From Mustelus asterias (lineage: Eukaryota), in assembly GCF_964213995.1 (NCBI RefSeq), contig NC_135811.1, positions 3,472,001-3,536,000 of the forward strand: a stretch of DNA of 64,000 nt, read 5' to 3'. Below are positions 10,562 to 58,399 of this stretch, one piece after another. The notes beneath the pieces were generated by a model. That model made no database searches, was not told the origin of the DNA, and worked only from the letters and a program-made list of their open reading frames with translations. The position numbers were made by a program, and so were the translations under genes. Numbering within the stretch: position 1 is the stretch's first letter; every line of letters begins with the position of its first letter.

Positions 10562-10775
10562 GTCATGATGTGGAGATGCCGGCGTTGGACTGGGGTGAAC
10601 ACAGTAAGAGTTTTAACAGCACCAGGTTAAAGTCCAACAGGTTTATTTGTTAGCAAACACCATTAGCTTTCGGAGCGCTGCTCCTGCGTGACGAAGGAGC
10701 AGCGCTCCGAAAGCTAATGGTGTTTGCTACCAAATAAACCTGTTGGACTTTAACCTGGTGCTGTTAAAACTCTTA
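10562..10775. mobile_element. Fold-back (inverted) Penelope pLTR insertion
   Basis: About 82-bp inverted arms at 10604-10685 and 10695-10776, homologous to 5870-5950; 12-bp TSD CCGGATAGGGTA (10550-10561, 10776-10787). Confidence 0.88.
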
Positions 10776-13698: not shown

Positions 13699-14107
13699 CT
13701 ACAAGCATAAAGAGACTTAATGTAATCAATATATATACCAACCAATACAATACCTTACGTGCAACATTCTACAGAGACCTGCATTGTTAAAATCAGGCCT
13801 TTGTATTTATGGGCAACATTTGCACAAAAGACACAGAGTGCTTCATTACTGATAGATTTCCACCATCCACACACTAAGGTAACTATTGAGAGAAGTTGAA
13901 TCTGTCGTCCTAAATTGACCGGAATTGAATTTGAGCAAAACGGAAGGCTCTGACCCAAAGCAGCCAGCGAATGGCAGTAGTAAATACCAGTCCAGTAACA
14001 AAGACACTGTAATGAACATTGCAATTACTTTACTGATCATTGAGCCACATAGACAATAGTAATTCTTGACTCTTTCTTGAATTTAAATTGACTGTTGTAT
14101 ATCTGAC

Positions 14108-15592
14108 TTGGGGTAGTACCGGCTGACTGGAAAACAGCTACTGTTACGCCACTGTTTAAAAAAGGAAGTAGACAAAAGGCGGGTAACTACAGGCCGGTTA
14201 GCTTAACGTCCGTAGTTGGGAAGATGCTAGAGTCCATTATTAAAGAGGAAATAACAGAGCACCTGAATAAGAATGGTTCGATCAAGCAGACGCAGCATGG
14301 ATTCATGAAGGGAAAGTCGTGTTTGACGAATCTACTGGACTTTTATGAAGATGTCACTAGTACGGTTGACAGAGGGGAACCGGTGGATGTGGTGTTTTTA
14401 GATTTCCAGAAGGCGTTCGATAAGGTGCCTCACAAAAGGTTGCTGCAGAAGATTGGGGTACACGGAGTTAGGGGTAAGGTGTTGGCGTGGATTGGGGATT
14501 GGCTATCTAACAGGAAGCAGAGAGTTGGGATAAATGGGTGCTTTTCTGGTTGGCAGTTGGTGACCAGTGGCGTGCCGCAGGGATCGGTGCTGGGGCCTCA
14601 ATTGTTTACCATTTACATAGATGATCTGGAGGAGGGGACTGAATCTAGGGTATTCAAGTTTGCTGATGACACGAAGGTGAGTGGGAAAGCGAATTGCGTG
14701 GAGGACGCGGAAAGTCTGCAGAGAGATTTGGATAGGCTGAGCGAGTGGGCGAGGATCTGGCAGATGGAATATAACGTTAGCAAATGTGAGGTTATCCACT
14801 TTGGAAGAAATAATAGTAAATTGGAATATTATTTAAATGGAGAAAAATTACATCGTGCGACTGTGCAGAGGGACCTGGGGGTCCTTGTGCACGAATCGCA
14901 AAAACTCAGTCTGCAGGTGCAGCAGGTGATCAAGAAGGCGAATGGAATGTTGGCCTTTATCGCGAAGGGGATAGAATATAAAAGCAGGGAGGTCTTGCTG
15001 CAACTGTACAAGGCACTGGTGAGGCCGCAACTGGAGTACTGTGTGCAGTTTTGGTCCCCTTATTTGCGAAAGGATATATTGGCCTTGGAGGGAGTGCAGA
15101 GAAGGTTCACCAGGTTGATACCGGAGATGAGGGGTGTAGCTTATGAGGAGAGATTAAACAGATTGGGTCTGTACTCGTTGGAGTTTAGAAGGATGAGGGG
15201 TGATCTTATAGAGACATATAAGATAATGAAGGGGCTGGATAGGGTAGAGGTGGAGAGATTCTTTCCACTTAGAAGGGAAACCAGAACTAGAGGGCACAGC
15301 CTCAAAATAAGGGGGGGCCGGTTCAGAACAGAGTTGAGGGGGAACTTCTTCTCTCAGAGGGTAGTGAATCTCTGGAATTCTCTGCCCATTGAAGTGGTGG
15401 AGGCTTCCTCGTTGAATATGTTTAAATCACGGGTAGATAGTTTTCTGATTGATAAGGGAATTAGGGATTATGGGGAGCAGGCGGGTAAGTGGAACTGATT
15501 CACTTCAGATCAGCCATGATCTTGTTGAATGGCGGGGCAGCCTCGAAGGGCCAGATGGCCTACTCCTGCTCCTATTTCTTATGTTCTTATGT
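14108..15592 (+). mobile_element. Young 5'-truncated CR1 LINE with an open RT frame
   Basis: 424-aa ORF 14224-15498 with all RT motifs and the C-terminus; tail TTCTTATGTTCTTATGTT. Confidence 0.95.
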
Positions 15593-16392: not shown

Positions 16393-16563
16393 GTTACTGG
16401 ATAAAAGCAAATTACTGTAGATGCTGGAATCTGAAACCAAAAGAGAAAATGCTGGGAAATCTCAGCTGTCTGGCAGCATCTGTTAGGAGAGAAAAGAGCT
16501 GACATTTTGAGTCCAGATGATCCTTAAAAGGGACCTGATGAGATTTTCCAGCATTTTCTCTTT
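16393..16563 (-). mobile_element. Partly inverted copy of the 27883-28035 family
   Basis: Reverse-complement match to 27915-28040; about 35-bp inverted arms (16437-16470 and 16532-16566); TSD TGGACATTT (16384-16392, 16564-16572). Confidence 0.7.
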
Positions 16564-16851
16564 TGGACATTTAGTACCATTTCTTTGTACCTGGACTAGA
16601 ATCCTGGAATTTCCCACCCAACAATATTGTGGATACGCCATCACAAGTTACTGCAGTGGTTCAAAAAGAAAATCCATCAACTTTCAGCAGTTAGGGATGG
16701 CCAAAAAATTGCAGCAAGTTCATACAAAATTTTATTCTGTTTGGTGTTTTCTTATTTCTAATGGCCAAGCATAATTTACCGAAAACCCCCCAACATAACC
16801 AGTACACTGTTATAGGAAATTAAAGTCTGCAGTGAGTAATCTGGTCCTTAC

Positions 16852-17990: not shown

Positions 17991-19433
17991 AGATATTTAC
18001 CCCCAGCGGGAGGCCATTCAGCCCGTCCCTCCTGTGAGGGGCAAGGCCGCAGTGCCCGGGGACCGCAGGCTGCTTTCCCCGCCGAGGGTCCTCACCCCTC
18101 AGGCCAGGGGCGAGGTGGAGGAATCGCGGGGCCTTCATGATTAACCCCAGCCGGGGACGGGAATCGAAGCTGGAGTCGCTCCGCATCACTGACCAGCCGG
18201 CCGAGCTAAACTGACAGCAGTCCTCGGTGCCGGCTGTCCCAATGAGCCCTCACCGCCACTAAAACTTTTTAATATTTATTTATTAGTGTCACAAGTACAT
18301 TAACACTGCAATGAAGTTGCTGTGAAAATCCCATTAGCGCTCTGTCAGGCAGCCAATTCCCAGCCCCACTCCCTGGGAAAGATTTTCCTCATGCCACTTT
18401 TACCAGTTATTTTTAAACCTCTGTCCACTCGCTCTCCATCCTTTCGCAGGACCTCCCCTCTCTGGCTGGACCCCTCCTGGTTTTTGAACACTTTTTGATC
18501 AGATCTCCTCTCAGCCTTGTATTTTTTTCTGAGGAAAACATTCCTAATTTCTGTCAGTTATCTCAGTAACTAAAGTTCCTCATTCCTTGAACAATTTTCA
18601 TGAATCTTTCCTCCTTTTATAGATTAATTAGAGGATTCTCTTCAATAGGATTTGAGTGGGATGTGGGGTCCTGATTGGCTACTTCTCAATGGGGTTTGAC
18701 CTGTTAATAGAAGATCATTTGTGTGTGTAAAAGTGTTTTTTCACATTAAGCACAATTTAATTGTGTTTGTTCCTAGCACCTAACAATAGGAATAAATACC
18801 CTCCAGGGCAGAAAGATTAGAAATGCTTACATAAAGCTCACTGGTCAGTATCTTGCGGATGTGTTTATGAATTTTAACCAATGCATCCTCCCCATTATTT
18901 CCCCAGTGGAAATCAAGGTATTTGCTTTTTCCACCCCCTAGCTCTACATAGAAGTTCATTAACAGTTGGATGAAAATCAGATAACTACGTACAAGAGTGA
19001 TTAAAACTTTGTTTATAAATTCTCAAATAAAAATAAAGTGTGGGAAATACCCACTGACTCACAGTTGACACCTAAAGTGGATAAATATATGAAAATGTTT
19101 CAGCAAAGTTAATTCCAATTGCTGATGAGCCTGAAGCCACAACCCAAAGTGGGTCAGCTTTGACAAAGGGATGTCTGGACTCTCAACATCAGCTCTTTTC
19201 TCTGCTTTTTGGTTTCAGATTCCAGCATCCACAGTAATTTGCTTTTATCCAGGGTACTAATACTTCCAGTCTTATTCAGGAAGCTATGGGAGACGGATGT
19301 TATGGGAAGTGACAAAGATATACTGGTGTATTAGATTTTTTTTAGATTGGGGCTGAGTAGAGTTAGTTTTATTCTGTATCGAATCGTACTGTAGATCATC
19401 TGAGTGTGTTTGATGCTGACACTGGGCCTCACA

Positions 19434-20485: not shown

Positions 20486-21064
20486 AGTTAGTTAGGTTGC
20501 AGAGGGCCAAAGGTCAATCTTGTAAGTTACCCGCAAGTAGAATGTTGTAACATGTTAAATGGTTCATTTCTCAGAGAATAATGAGACCAATGGAAGAGGT
20601 TGCTGGCTCATGTGGTGAATTCTGATTCGCTCAGTACAATCAAATGTGATCCAGAGATCAAGTCATACAACAGGTGGATACCAACTAAAATAATCCTGGC
20701 CAGTGTGGTCTCCTGCTCTAGTTTTGATTGCCTTAGGAAATTGAGAAAGGAATTTTCCAGATTTCCTTTTACTGGAATTCATCTTACATTTTAATACTGT
20801 TTTAAACCGCCCCTGGTAGGTTGCATTATTCTGGCGAGTAGGAATAGTCTTAGTCATGAAGCATTATGAAGTTATACTAAACCAATAATCATGGATTAGG
20901 TCTCAGTCTGATTCTGGAGACCACATTTTAGAATGGATGCAAAAAGATGAGAAAATGGAGGTGATCATGGAGCATTTGAGTATTTGTACAGTGATCTTAA
21001 AATCTCAATTGTTGGAACAGGTCGATTCCCAGTTTAGCCAGACTCTGAGTCAGTCGTGCAATGT

Positions 21065-25512: not shown

Positions 25513-26449
25513 GTAAAATCTCTGCCTTTTCCTTCCTCTTCCCTTCCCAAGTGGAGGAGCCTCCATTTGCAGTGCACACTGAGGGTAGGTCTAACCTGAC
25601 CTTCCCTACCCACCAGGAAATTGACAGCATCCAGTGTTTTGCACTTTTCCAGATTTTACCCTCCATTGATCTCATGTGAAAATGAGTTGAATTGTCCCGG
25701 ATTTGCTTTTTGACTGATTCCCTCTTGGTGCTAGTGTCCGCCTCAACCCCTGGCCTCTGGCATTGCCCAAGGGTCAAAGTGCCATGCCCAGGGGGCATCT
25801 TGGCACTGCCTGCCAGGCATTGGGCAGTGCCAAGGATGGGGCCTAATGGGGGGGGTAGGGTCTCTGTGGGGGAGGTCGGTGGGGGGGTGGGGAGTAGGTC
25901 GATGCTGGCCCGGACATGTAAGCCAGCGATCAAACGGGCCAGCGATCAGGAGGCCAGCGATCAGGAGGCCAGCGATCAGGAGGCCAGCAGTGTGGGGCTA
26001 CTGCCCATGCACCGATCCCGGCACTAGCAGATTGGCGTATGCGCAGTGGCCCACTCAGCACTGTGTTGCCGGCCTCTCCAGCAGGAGTTGGCCCTGCCCC
26101 TGCATTTTTACGAGATTTAAGCTAGGGCTCTCTGCAGTGCACAGAGTGTGGGAGATTCATTTCGAAACTCCTGCTGAAAAAAACCAGCGTGATTTACTCC
26201 AGTTTTTACACAAAATTGACGCTTAGAATTTTTTTGAAAGACCTCTATATTCCATGCACCCCCTATATTCTGCACACTCCCCTTTTCTTCTCTCCTATGT
26301 ACTCTATGTACGGTATGCTTTGTCTGTATAGCGCACAAGAAACAATACTTTTCACTGTATACCAATGCATGTGACAATAATAAATCAAATCAAATCAAAA
26401 AACATCCACATGTGACCTTGATGTAACAAAATTCAGAACACACATGGAT

Positions 26450-27570
26450 GGAAAATGTTAAGAGCGAGCATCGCTGGGGGTGTATGTATATAAATCATTA
26501 AATCATTGCAAGGCAGGTCGAGAAAGTATACGGGATCCTGGTTTTATTAATAGGGGCATAAAGTAAGCAAGCAAGGAAGTTTTGATAAATTTGTCAGCCT
26601 CAGCGGGGTATTGTGTCCAGTTCTGGACACCACACTTGTGAAAGTATTAAAGAAGGCTCAGAAAAGATTCACGAGATGGTCCTTCAGTTACATGGACAGA
26701 TTGGAAAAGCTGGGACTCTTTTTCCTGGATAAGTGAAGGTTTAAAGAAATTTAATAGAGGTGTTCAAAATTATGAGGGGTCTGGACAGAGTGGACAGGGA
26801 GAAACTGTTCCCATTGGTGGAAGGGTGGAGAAGCAGAGCGTGTCAACTTGAGGGGAATGAAGCAACTGTATCATGAGGAGAAACCTTTATACGCAGCAAG
26901 TAGTTAGGATCTGGAATGCACTGTCTGAGAGTGTGGTGGAGACAGATTCACACAGTGAGTGGTTAGGATGTGGAATGTACTGTCCGAGAGTGTGGTGGAG
27001 ACAGATTCACACAGTGAGTGGTTAGGATGTGGAATGTACTGTCCGAGAGTGTGGTGGAGACAGATTCACACAGTGAGTGGTTAGGATCTGGAATGTACTG
27101 TCCGAGAGTGTGGTGGAGACAGATTCACACAGTGAGTGGTTAGGATCTGGAATGCACTGTCTGAGAGTGTGATGGAGACAGATTCACGCAGTGAGTGGTT
27201 AGGATCTGGAATGCACTGTCTGAGAGTGTGATGGAGACAGATTCACGCAGTGAGTGGTTAGGATCGGGAATGTACTGTCTGAGAGTGTGATGGAGACAGA
27301 TTCACACAGCGAGTGGTTAGGATCTGGAATGCACTGTCTGAGAGTGTGATGGAGACAGATTCACGCAGTGAGTGGTTAGGATCTGGAATGTACTGTCTGA
27401 GAGTGGTGGAGGCAAGTTTTCAAAAGGGAATTTGATAATTATCTGAAGAGGAAAGATTTGCAGGGCTACAGGGAAAAGACAGGGGAGTGGCACTAGGTGA
27501 ATTACTCTTGCAGAGAGCCAGTACGGGCATAATGGGCTGAATGGCTTCCTGTGCTGTAACTATTCTGTAA
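26450..27570 (+). mobile_element. CR1 3' fragment containing a 59-bp tandem expansion
   Basis: CR1 ORF2 C-terminal sequence continues on both sides of the array. Confidence 0.8.
26900..27410 (+). repeat. 59-bp tandem repeat, about 8.6 copies
   Basis: GACAGATTCA recurs at 26941, 27000, 27059 and onward. Confidence 0.95.
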
Positions 27571-27882
27571 CTCTGTGTTACAACTGAATCTGCTACTACT
27601 GCCCTTTCAGATAGCTCATTTCAGATTACAACACCTTGCTATGTTAAAAACATCCTTCTTAACCCCCACTCCCTTCCACTCCCCAGTTATTTTGCTAATT
27701 TTCTTAAATCCATATCCTTTGGCTTCTGACCTTGCTGCCAGCGGAAACAGTTTCTCCCAATCTGCTCTGTCAAAACCCTTCAACACCTCCATTAACCCTA
27801 ACCTTCTCTGCTCTAAGGAGAACAGAGGCGATGGAGTACTGGTAATGTGATTGAGCTAGTAATCCAGGTACCCAGACTAATG

Positions 27883-28035
27883 ACAAAGCCTGGGTTTGAC
27901 AAAGCTTTGACAAAGGGTCATCTGGACTCGAAACGTCAGCTCTTTTCTCTCCTTACAGATGCTGCCAGACCTGCTGAGATTTTCCAGCATTTTCTCTTTT
28001 GGTTTCAGATTCCAGCATCCGCAGTAATTTGCTTT
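27883..28035 (+). mobile_element. Short non-autonomous element of a second hammerhead-bearing (probably Penelope-derived) family
   Basis: 14-bp TSD TACCCAGACTAATG (27869-27882, 28036-28049). Related copies at about 16393-16563 (-) and 19156-19252 (+), and weaker ones at about 56880-56960 and 57640-57740. Confidence 0.75.
27903..27941 (+). ncRNA. Variant minimal hammerhead ribozyme (U3-A8 core)
   Basis: AGCT TTGACAA A GGGTC atctg GACTC GAAA CG TC AGCT. Confidence 0.65.
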
Positions 28036-28193
28036 TACCCAGACTAATGCTGTGGAGACACAGGGTCAAACCCCACCATGACAACTAGTCAAATTTAAAT
28101 TCAATTCATAAATCTGGAACCAAAAGTTAGTCTAAGCTTGTCGATTATCATAAAATCCCAACACGTTCACAAATGTTCTTTAGGGAAGGAAAT

Positions 28194-28503
28194 GGGTAGC
28201 ACAGAGGTTAGCACTGCTGCCTCACAGCTCCAGGGACCCGGGTTCGATTCTCAGCTTGGGTCACTGTCTGTGTGGAGTTTGCACGTTCTCCCCGTGTCTG
28301 CCTGGGTTTCCTCCGGGTGCTCCGGTTTCCTCCCACAGTCTGAAAGATGTGCAGGTTAGGTGGATTAGCCGTGGTAAATGTGCAAGATTACGGGAATAAG
28401 GCGGAGGGGTCGGCCTGGGTGGGATGTTCTTTCAGAGAGTCAGTGCAGCCTTGATGGACCAGATGGCCTCTTTCTTCACTGTAGGGGTTCCGTGGTTCTG
28501 TGG
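28194..28503 (+). mobile_element. HE1-like V-SINE
   Basis: Head, V-core and tail present. Confidence 0.85.
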
Positions 28504-29631
28504 TGGTGAGGGAACCAACATGAGGGAAAAATCTACTTTACCTTGTCCTTACCATTTTACCTGTCACAGGTGCCTCTGTCCAAAAGACTACTGATCTGAA
28601 TGACCGCTGCATTGTCCTTGTGGGGATAAAGAACCACCTTCACATTGAGGATCTTGTTGTGTGGTACTAAATGGAATAGATTTCAAACACATCTAGTGAC
28701 TCAAAACTAGGCATCCATGAGGCCCTGTGGACCATCAGCAGCAACTTTCCAAGGGTTACCATTGACCAGAATTCAACTGGACTAGCCATATAAATGCTGT
28801 AGTTACAATAGCAGGTCAGAGGCTAGGAATCCTACATCAAGTGACTCATCTCCTGACTTCCCAAAGTCTGTCCACCATTTAAAAGGCACAAACCAGGAGT
28901 GTGATGGAGTACTCCCCACTTGCTTGGGTGAGTGCAGTTCCAACAACACTCAACCAGCTGGATATTGTCCAGGACAAAGCAGCCTGCATTATTGTCACTC
29001 CCTTCATCACTGACGCACAATGGCCGTAGTGTGTACCATCTACAAGATGCACTGCTGGAACTCACCAAGGTTCCTTAGACAGCACCTTCCAAACCCAGGC
29101 CACCACACCTAGAAGGACAAGGGCAGTTGACAAATGGGAACACCACCACCTGCAACTTCCCCTCCAAGCCACACACTATCCTGACTTGGAAATATATCAT
29201 TGTTCCTTCACTGTTGCTGGGTTAAAATCCTGGCACTCCTCCCTAACTGCACTGTGGGTGTACCTACTCACCTGGACTGCGGTGGTTGAAGAAGGCAGCT
29301 CACCACCACCTTTTCAAGGGCAATTATGGATGGGCAATAACTGCTGGTCCAGCCCACATTCCTGAACAAATGCTTAAAACAATCCCGTTTCTCCAATCTG
29401 TCCACATAACTGAAGTCCCTTGTCCCTGGTATCATTCTAGTAAATCTCCTCACACCCTCCACAAGGCTGACAACCTTCCTGAAGAATGCTGCCCAGAATT
29501 TGCCACGATCCTCTAGCTGGGGCCCAACCAGTGTTGTATAAAGACTTAGCATAATTTCTTAATTTTGTACACAATGTAAAAAGTCCAGGATTCTGTTTGC
29601 GGTTTTCAAACCTGAAAGACTTGGTTTGATT

Positions 29632-29655
29632 TGTGTGTGTGTGTGTGTGTGTGTG
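29632..29655 (+). repeat. (TG)12 microsatellite
   Basis: Direct read; about 40 nt upstream of the POLL acceptor at 29695. Confidence 0.95.
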
Positions 29656-29695
29656 AACTTACTGTGGAGCCTGGTTTCCCCTTTGCCTTTCACAG

Positions 29696-56800: not shown

Positions 56801-58399
56801 TTTAAGAATCGAGTGCGACAACTAAATGCAGAATTGAAAAAAAGTTATAACAGAGACAGGTTGCGACAACAGACACTGGTTGCAGGAATAAACAGAAAAT
56901 GCTGGAAAAACTCAGCAGGTTTGACAGCATCTGTGGAGAGAGAATCATATGACTTCTTCAGAGAAGAGGAGGCAGAAGTAGAGGTTGCAGGAATGCAGAT
57001 GTCAGTATAATGAAGATGGAAAAGCAAATTTGTTTCCTCCCAAATACCAGAAACATTACAAACTATAAAATGAGTATCGCTGGCTTAGCTCAGTGCTTGT
57101 GCCCATCTTCCTGATTCCCTCCTCTCTGCTGCAGATATTAGGGGATCTCATCTCATCTCTTTGTTAGTGTCTCTCCCAACCTGAGAGCCAGAAGACGTAC
57201 CATGGACATAGATACCAGAATCAAACGCAAGAGAATTGGTCAGAAGGCAAATGGTTGCTGGTCCACACAACAAACCAGGCCACGAAACCAGAGATCGCAA
57301 GTTTCAATTCCACTACATCAACTTCTGCAATGAAGTCTTCTTTGCAGAGCAAACAATTACTCAGCAGGACAAGATTTACAGGAGGTTACTGAGGGCTGTG
57401 GGTACTGGGGAGGAATCTCCCACACCCATCACTTAGAGTCATCAGCACTGATGCAATGGGAAGGTAAAGTCACACATAGGACTGGGCTATTCTACTGTAT
57501 TAAAGTGGTAATTATAGGCCTACATTGTTACTGGTGAACCCGGTGTAGGTCCACTTCCAAGTTAGACTTCAGGCAGTCTTTATACAAACAAATTCTCCCA
57601 CCTCAATAAATGGCTTAGGTGTACAACTCAAATCAGGTTCTGAAGGGTAGGCACCCAAAATATTAGTCTGCCTTTCTCCTTTACAGATGTTGCCTAACCA
57701 GCTGTGTATTCCCAGCACTGGTGCACTTACTTCAGATTTACATTTACAGTTTGTTCCTTTATTCAGAAACAATTCTATAAAATGCTAAATTAGATAATAA
57801 GAATCTCTACATACAAGGTGCCTTTTTAAAGAGAGGAATCAATTTAAAGTCTAAGAGACCATTAGTTTTTACAGAACAATACTGCAGAAAGCAGACTCCA
57901 AGGCACCAGTTGGAAGTCCCAGAACCTCAATCAAACTGAACTCGGCTTGCAGTAACGAAACGAGCCAAGATGTCCAAACATTCCTCTGTGATGGATGGTC
58001 AGTTATAGACAGCCACCTTATGACAATATGGTTTAAATGGCTGCACAGCAAGCAAACATCGTCAGCCTGTGACTGGCGTCAGAAGTGAGAGAAACTATTC
58101 TCCACCTTACCAACTTCCTGTTTAATAACAGAGAATTTCTGATGTGAGATGAGAAAAATGGAAGGAAGTAAAAGGGCAAAAACAGAAAAGGGAAAAGGCA
58201 TTGCTTTGTTACTGCATCAGTGGAGCTCCGCCCATCTCACAAAGTGCCATCTAGATCAAGTTCACCTTATTATGCATTTCAAATAAAAAAAGATAAAATA
58301 TAAAACATTATTAAACACAGGTTATTCAGCTTAAGGCTAAATTTAGATACATTTAATTATACACATCCTTTAATTACACTACGTAGCACAGGGCAACCG

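Follow-up and report, generated by a model that had tools for sequence, protein, structure and literature searches.

A Penelope-like pseudo-LTR stub with a U3-A8 hammerhead motif in a POLL intron of Mustelus asterias

An intron of POLL in Mustelus asterias carries a short insertion with a hammerhead ribozyme motif whose core has U3-A8 in place of C3-G8. The locus raises the questions of what this insertion is, whether its altered core could still be that of a ribozyme, and whether POLL is affected. The window analyzed is the whole stretch of 64,000 nucleotides (NC_135811.1, positions 3,472,001 to 3,536,000), to which all coordinates below refer. An earlier sequence-only reading had taken the insertion for a member of a SINE-like ribozyme family whose double core change preserves activity.

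The insert, its motif, and its parent element

The insert spans 153 bp (27883-28035), and both copies of the 14-bp target duplication claimed for it were located at its flanks (Table 1). Its proposed sense orientation also holds: the POLL exons are on the + strand, with a start codon near 21050 and Pfam matches to BRCT, HHH_8, and pol-beta thumb/palm, and the hammerhead is on the + strand of the intron. While 153 bp is the size of the insert, it is not that of the family unit, which corresponds to 27903-28037, the last two bases falling within the right target duplication. Element positions are numbered with +1 at 27903. The filler preceding the unit occupies the identical site in two further organisms and likely reflects abortive re-priming or a template slip at the 5' junction.

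Table 1. Coordinates of the insert, its parts, and related copies in the window
Feature	Position	Strand	Remark
Left copy of 14-bp target-site duplication	27869..27882		
20-nt junction filler, outside family unit, partly repeating the element's first bases	27883..27902	+	
Pseudo-LTR of Penelope-like element, +1 to +135	27903..28037	+	Family majority matched at 135/135
Minimal type I hammerhead motif	27903..27941	+	
"Tail" of ~35 nt between the family's two preferred 3' ends (+94..+109, +132..+141)	28003..28037	+	
Right copy of 14-bp target-site duplication	28036..28049		
Host POLL intron with insert	25513..29695	+	
Second family copy: U3-A8 box present, GAAA lost, internal deletion	19156..19252	+	POLL start codon downstream
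Head-to-head pair of truncated same-family arms: long on minus, short on plus	16404..16566		

The stems, GAAA, and GUC reported as intact around a U3-A8 core could each be placed by coordinate. Stem I (4 bp) pairs 27903-27906 with 27938-27941, and the core box (27907-27913), with U3 at 27907 and A8 at 27912, is followed by one extra A. Stem II (27915-27919 with 27925-27929; 5 bp, one of them G-U) is closed by G10.1-C11.1. GAAA lies at 27930-27933 and the GUC triplet at 27935-27937, and the cut is predicted to separate 27937 from 27938. The palindrome of stem III is four bases long (ACGU), where AACGT was first given. The Watson-Crick 3-8 pair, the NUH triplet, the extra nucleotide after position 9, and a palindromic stem III stub are thus all present alongside G10.1-C11.1. 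By these sequence features the motif can be classed as a hammerhead resembling published Penelope hammerheads; core boxes, stems, and pseudo-LTR location all fit the Penelope-type minimal form originally suggested. Rfam returned no hammerhead match in the window at E ≤ 10, as expected for a minimal variant. The copy upstream of the POLL start codon (19156-19252) does share the TTGACAA core box, as had been noted, but has lost GAAA (Table 1).

In isolation, +1 to +45 forms both stem I (pair 2-38, p = 0.87) and stem II (p = 1.0) when folded by computation. The predicted probability of stem II falls from 1.0 (45 nt) to 0.02-0.36 with the tail included and is 0.24-0.98 in intron context, varying with window size. 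Once the tail is transcribed, +20 to +32 (27922-27934) is predicted to pair with +100 to +113 (28002-28015). The base of this modeled helix would coincide with the shorter preferred 3' end. In two-molecule folding the dimeric hammerhead is not the lowest-energy form, a result that is uninformative because core contacts lie outside the model.

Several other features were seen in the window. Minus-strand 53-aa frames with regular spacing (period, ~59 nt) at 26900-27420 of the same intron suggest a minisatellite. A 463-aa open frame upstream of POLL (14107-15498) encodes what we take to be a CR1-like LINE reverse transcriptase (RT), and older, diverged relatives of the insert's pseudo-LTR occur at 56890-56944 and 57673-57717. 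At 10620-10753, two arms of a different repeat, which bears a hammerhead with a canonical core, meet head to head in a long palindrome; this palindrome accounts for a weak microRNA-like match in Rfam.

The U3-A8 family is large, with 5,607 exact matches to a 32-mer and 7,073 to a downstream 31-mer pattern (controls, 0). When the ORF end plus 3' untranslated region (UTR) was used as a query, the 30 best matches, read by eye and including the query locus itself, all ran into the same U3/A8 hammerhead. An autonomous RT plus GIY-YIG partner with the same end, suggested as something to look for, was therefore found. Locus L131 contains RT and endonuclease frames plus an inverted 5' arm, and L276 is a partial tandem in which the endonuclease end, UTR, and pseudo-LTR are followed by the ORF start and RT motifs; the pseudo-LTR also leads straight into the ORF start in L146/L276 and L151/L277. 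Pfam matches to RVT_1 (E = 0.0015) and, in 3/4 fragments, GIY-YIG (E = 4e-4 to 2e-3) were all under the curated cutoffs. DKG, GVAMG, YIDD, and YIGET motifs occur in the broken frames of L131 and L276, from which the order RT then GIY-YIG, as a single ORF, can be read; all ORFs seen in the parent element are broken.

A C-x4-C-x2-C motif precedes the GIY-YIG motif in L081, L084, and L131. According to PMC8557442, CX2-5CxxC in the RT-endonuclease linker marks Neptune/Nematis elements, and partial tandems, inverted arms, and a 30- to 40-bp tail are standard Penelope-like anatomy. The parent shares with that type the RT followed by a C-terminal GIY-YIG domain, the linker motif, partial tandems, an inverted truncated arm, a 30- to 40-bp tail, and a pseudo-LTR hammerhead; unlike the elements described there, it yielded no intact ORF. 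By the linker motif, we class the parent provisionally as a Neptune-type Penelope-like element, and the insert is almost certainly a stub of its pseudo-LTR.

At least three distinct GIY-YIG retroelement families occur in the genome (L031-L038); among these loci, L035 is a C3-G8 relative with 85% identity over 107 nt of pseudo-LTR. L155, L156, and L161, on one contig, are >99% identical over 1.5 kb including flank and represent a recent segmental duplication with a Penelope fragment. Acceptor-like sites (pyrimidine tract plus AG) lie at +2, +56, +106, ~+140, and immediately ahead of the likely ORF start in L146:376-560 and L151:434-620; no donor matching this run was identified. The element's 5' region also has a frame of 24 codons that opens at +56 and ends within the tail.

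The 3-8 pair and the search for cleavage

We assessed positions 3 and 8 in the 77 arms, out of 100, that span the core without gaps. U/A was found in 69, with C/A (n = 3), U/U (n = 3), U/G (n = 1), and U/C (n = 1) making up the remainder. All 30 long copies, read by eye, also have U3-A8, which is thus a family trait, as the sequence-only reading proposed, and the master state of the family. The other combinations appear to be products of decay, with non-CpG sites diverging by 4.6% on average. With C/G at 0/77, there is no 3-8 covariation within the U3-A8 family to count; the proposed covariation is instead seen between families, as sister families have C3-G8. For the nearest of these, a pattern with G8 fixed and position 3 free gave 2,939 matches, the first 100 of which have C (n = 83), U (n = 8), G (n = 7), or A (n = 2) at position 3, as counted by eye. 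The swap looks compensatory because this near-identical family is C3-G8. The prediction that scans for the canonical core would miss the family is borne out by the >5,600 exact copies that they pass over in one genome.

The majority sequences of the two families differ at 6/39 ribozyme positions (+5, +10, +21, +22, +35, and +36), which comprise both members of the 3-8 pair, two bases in the loop, the triplet's H, and a base of stem I whose change turns G-U into A-U. All six are in a loop or keep a pair, and two (G1.1 to A and U17 to C) go toward a Watson-Crick pair and a GUC triplet. The probability that six random changes would all be tolerated is 0.001-0.011, a value that overstates the case, since much of the core was held constant in the search patterns; for a matching change at position 3 alone, we roughly estimate a chance of ~0.05-0.1. 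Among 11 hand-picked copies from three families, 99/100 cells are paired and 3 pairs are changed on both sides, although these counts are inflated in that the retrieval patterns held constant much of the core and part of the stems. In the third, older family, retrieved with two patterns (3 and 17 matches, respectively), stems I and II are altered on both sides, and the 5' strand of stem I was mostly outside the search pattern. The swap at 3-8 counts as one evolutionary event, and U3-A8 is quite likely a selected compensation.

The best-surviving alternative is that the motif is a relic, in which G8 of the master became A through decay of a CpG, U3 hitchhiked, and the ribozyme is irrelevant. 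Positions 7-8 of the sister core are a CpG, and G8A is therefore the commonest kind of mutation; by the same token, U3-A8 could plausibly have been reached by loss of this CpG and then a restoring change. A relic would fit the reports that catalytic mutants of the anole element still inserted in vitro (PMC11167929) and that Naiad elements spread without canonical hammerheads (PMC8557442). It would also fit pairwise mutagenesis of one type III hammerhead, in which only a G-C swap rescued the 3-8 pair (PMC9901934), arguing that U-A at 3-8 can be poor. However, U3-A8 recurs in unrelated hammerheads: PMC4209133 describes ~1,300 matches to Penelope hammerheads with this pair in Schistosoma mansoni, and PMC3088659 reports it in several other natural hammerheads that are stated to be active in vitro. 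The six sister-family differences, all tolerated and two of them toward canonical pairing or GUC, likewise run against a relic, which we regard as unlikely.

The relic reading gains from the genomic 5' ends, which show no independent surplus at the cut site. In the 100 arms, 2 begin at +36 and 1 at +37. Genome-wide junction patterns gave 50 matches at +36 versus 26 at +39 and 22 at +33, but the surplus is explained by microhomology, since 26 of the 50 junctions, read by eye, unite +1 with +36 head to head via a shared AGCT. Joins with 1 to 2 shared bases at +13, +16, and +20 numbered 3, 3, and 4 among the first 100 matches; within that stretch of contig 1 there were 2 comparable joins at +36, a count taken from the other junction search because the last pattern letter excluded that class. 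No independent genomic footprint of cleavage therefore remains for the U3-A8 family. The C3-G8 sister gave 27 matches at its own cut site, mostly internal deletions or substitutions and without controls, so the two families cannot be ranked by activity; the 65 arms retrieved for a hammerhead family at a greater distance were too heterogeneous for this comparison.

Minimal hammerheads cut little even as dimers, and the anole element's ribozyme is reported to cut only with protein present (PMC11167929). Returning to the preferred reading, the U3-A8 hammerhead is probably compensated yet weak as a ribozyme, and would depend on the element's protein or on a partner copy. We lean slightly toward expecting measurable cleavage under either of these circumstances.

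Origin of the short copies

Copy ends were mapped on the first 100 consecutive arms matching an anchor downstream of the cut site, chosen because the first 40 matches to the 153-mer favored copies with its 5' filler. At the 5' side, 49 arms begin at 0 to +4 (25 of them at +1), 23 begin at +5 to +41, and 28 extend upstream of -2, where they share a common UTR. The 3' ends fall at +94 to +109 (n = 47), at +132 to +141 (n = 47), or elsewhere (n = 6). An inverted arm lies within 200 nt, just upstream, in 48/100 arms, and flanking repeats of at least 9 nt are present in 39/100 versus 2/100 in a reversed control. In 24/30 long copies, +1 is preceded at exactly 30 nt by a TATA-like box; by eye, one is found at -30/-31 in 4/30 sister-family copies, with a different spacer sequence. 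A spacing of ~30 nt from TATA box to start is usual for polymerase II.

Because of the TATA box at -30, the RNA likely begins at the first base of the ribozyme, and the sharp 5' edge would also fit +1 as the transcription start. This start site is unproven, as the +1 edge in three families also resembles a 3' splice site; in Drosophila Penelope, an intron end meets helix I. Arms starting at +1 have no common upstream exon when read by eye. Among the matches listed for contigs of four sequencing runs, whose RNA origin is a guess, no splice joint appeared; such contigs do not reveal RNA ends. For Poseidon of Anolis carolinensis, PMC11167929 describes two internal RT starts that bound the tail and uncut RNA as the main template. 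The two 3' ends of the present family may represent the same two internal priming sites. RT would then prime at the tail, at ~+100 or ~+135, and run off the RNA 5' end at +1, with two cDNAs per landing giving the head-to-head arms and mostly uncut RNA serving as the template. The stubs probably arose by such run-off, and the 5' edge, TATA box, and two 3' ends would together mirror, at the level of the genome, the internal priming that was measured in vitro with the anole element.

The two systems thus share two preferred 3' ends bounding a tail, a hammerhead near the RNA 5' end, and templates that would be mostly uncut. They differ in that the Poseidon ORF, as described in PMC11167929, starts inside the ribozyme, whose core is C3-G8, whereas the likely ORF start here is ~170 nt after +1; a cut would consequently remove a 35-nt leader and not coding sequence. 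The stub in the POLL intron was likely dead on arrival, since it has neither the TATA box nor the ORF region.

A second alternative retains the original proposal of an independent, SINE-like, non-autonomous ribozyme family, one replicating from its short copies with Penelope protein. Half of the arms do start at 0 to +4, measure 100 to 135 nt, and have flanking repeats, and Penelope pseudo-LTRs are described as able to act in trans (PMC3846280). Nevertheless, short and long copies have a common majority sequence and common ends, the 5' ends are continuous into UTR and ORF, and the short copies lack the TATA box. A comparison of short and long arms at three variant positions found minor variants at +18 and +19 to be more common in short arms (9 and 10 of 59) than in long arms (1 and 1 of 23); the +18 variant, however, also occurs in 9/30 ORF-linked copies, as read by eye. 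The anole protein is, in addition, reported to require the initial 172 nt of its ORF RNA (PMC11167929). Animal non-LTR retrozymes, which have been proposed as non-autonomous Penelope derivatives (bioRxiv 10.64898/2026.07.22.740005), are likewise short, non-coding, and Penelope related, with a type I hammerhead. They are defined in that account by tandem units, whereas this insert is single and traces to an ORF-bearing element. No retrozyme-like tandem arrays were seen among the loci read, and no distinct unit of its own sets the insert apart from the element's pseudo-LTR, with which it is colinear.

An independent family is therefore very unlikely. As long copies lead into the ORF, the insert is better described as +1 to +135 plus 20 nt of filler than as a SINE, and the separate family initially proposed gives way to a truncated copy of an autonomous element's pseudo-LTR.

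Consequences for POLL and relation to known systems

No second family copy on the same strand was found within POLL, so a dimer in cis is unavailable in this gene. A lone insert with no partner ribozyme and a competing fold would likely leave the POLL pre-mRNA uncut, and the insert very probably has no effect on POLL. We hold with high confidence the combined reading of a Penelope run-off stub with a compensated, weak hammerhead that leaves POLL uncut.

The state of preservation of this copy is not what that reading alone would lead one to expect. The copy has 0/135 differences from the family majority, with all 3 CpGs kept, whereas 34 full-length arms carry 1 to 15 differences, averaging 5.3 per 101 free positions. 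Contigs from two other organisms share the insertion, their preceding flanks differing at 24 and 21 of 321 nt; these contigs end at +18 and +20, so that the insertion beyond is unseen there. An empty-site joint was absent among the matches listed, the insertion being shared instead. If each lineage changed by 3-3.75%, a complete lack of differences has a P value of 0.006-0.016. The insert is thus old yet unchanged, and a purely neutral stub would not predict 0 differences. Acceptor-like sites are also present at 27958 and 28008. That this copy is a domesticated U3-A8 hammerhead, or a splice element, kept by selection to tune POLL RNA since before the split of the three lineages (~7% in the flank) is nonetheless very unlikely, because it was picked as intact looking and the orthologous contigs stop so early, to which are added the missing partner ribozyme, the competing fold, and gene conversion, which could likewise erase differences. 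Were it true, cutting in trans with transcripts of other pseudo-LTRs, protein-helped cutting, or cryptic splicing would tune the RNA of DNA polymerase lambda, and the tail helix would be a co-transcriptional off-switch of the domesticated hammerhead.

U3-A8 in Penelope hammerheads is already known and is not new here. The closest counterpart is Cercyon of S. mansoni, which PMC4209133 describes as a type I hammerhead with no real stem III, an additional nucleotide separating position 9 from 10.1, G10.1-C11.1, a palindromic 15.2-16.2, and a U3-A8 core, all as found here. Its copies are likewise mostly single and dispersed, from truncated elements, with some close opposite-strand pairs. The present family differs in having a vertebrate host, a stem II of 5 bp (7 to 8 bp in Cercyon), and one homogeneous family accompanied by a near-identical C3-G8 sister, and it is known from sequence alone. 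The natural U3-A8 hammerheads of PMC3088659 have the same compensatory pair; those were found by full three-stem descriptors, in contrast to the minimal retroelement form of this motif. A U3-A8 family in cartilaginous fish was not found in the literature searched, although the supplements of PMC4209133 or repeat libraries may list one.

Most of what is described above is ordinary. The role of Penelope hammerheads is still open according to PMC8557442, and it is this question that makes the two sister families useful. With thousands of copies each, the C3-G8 and U3-A8 families form a natural test pair, and since they stand only 6/39 ribozyme positions apart, the cost of the swap is directly measurable.
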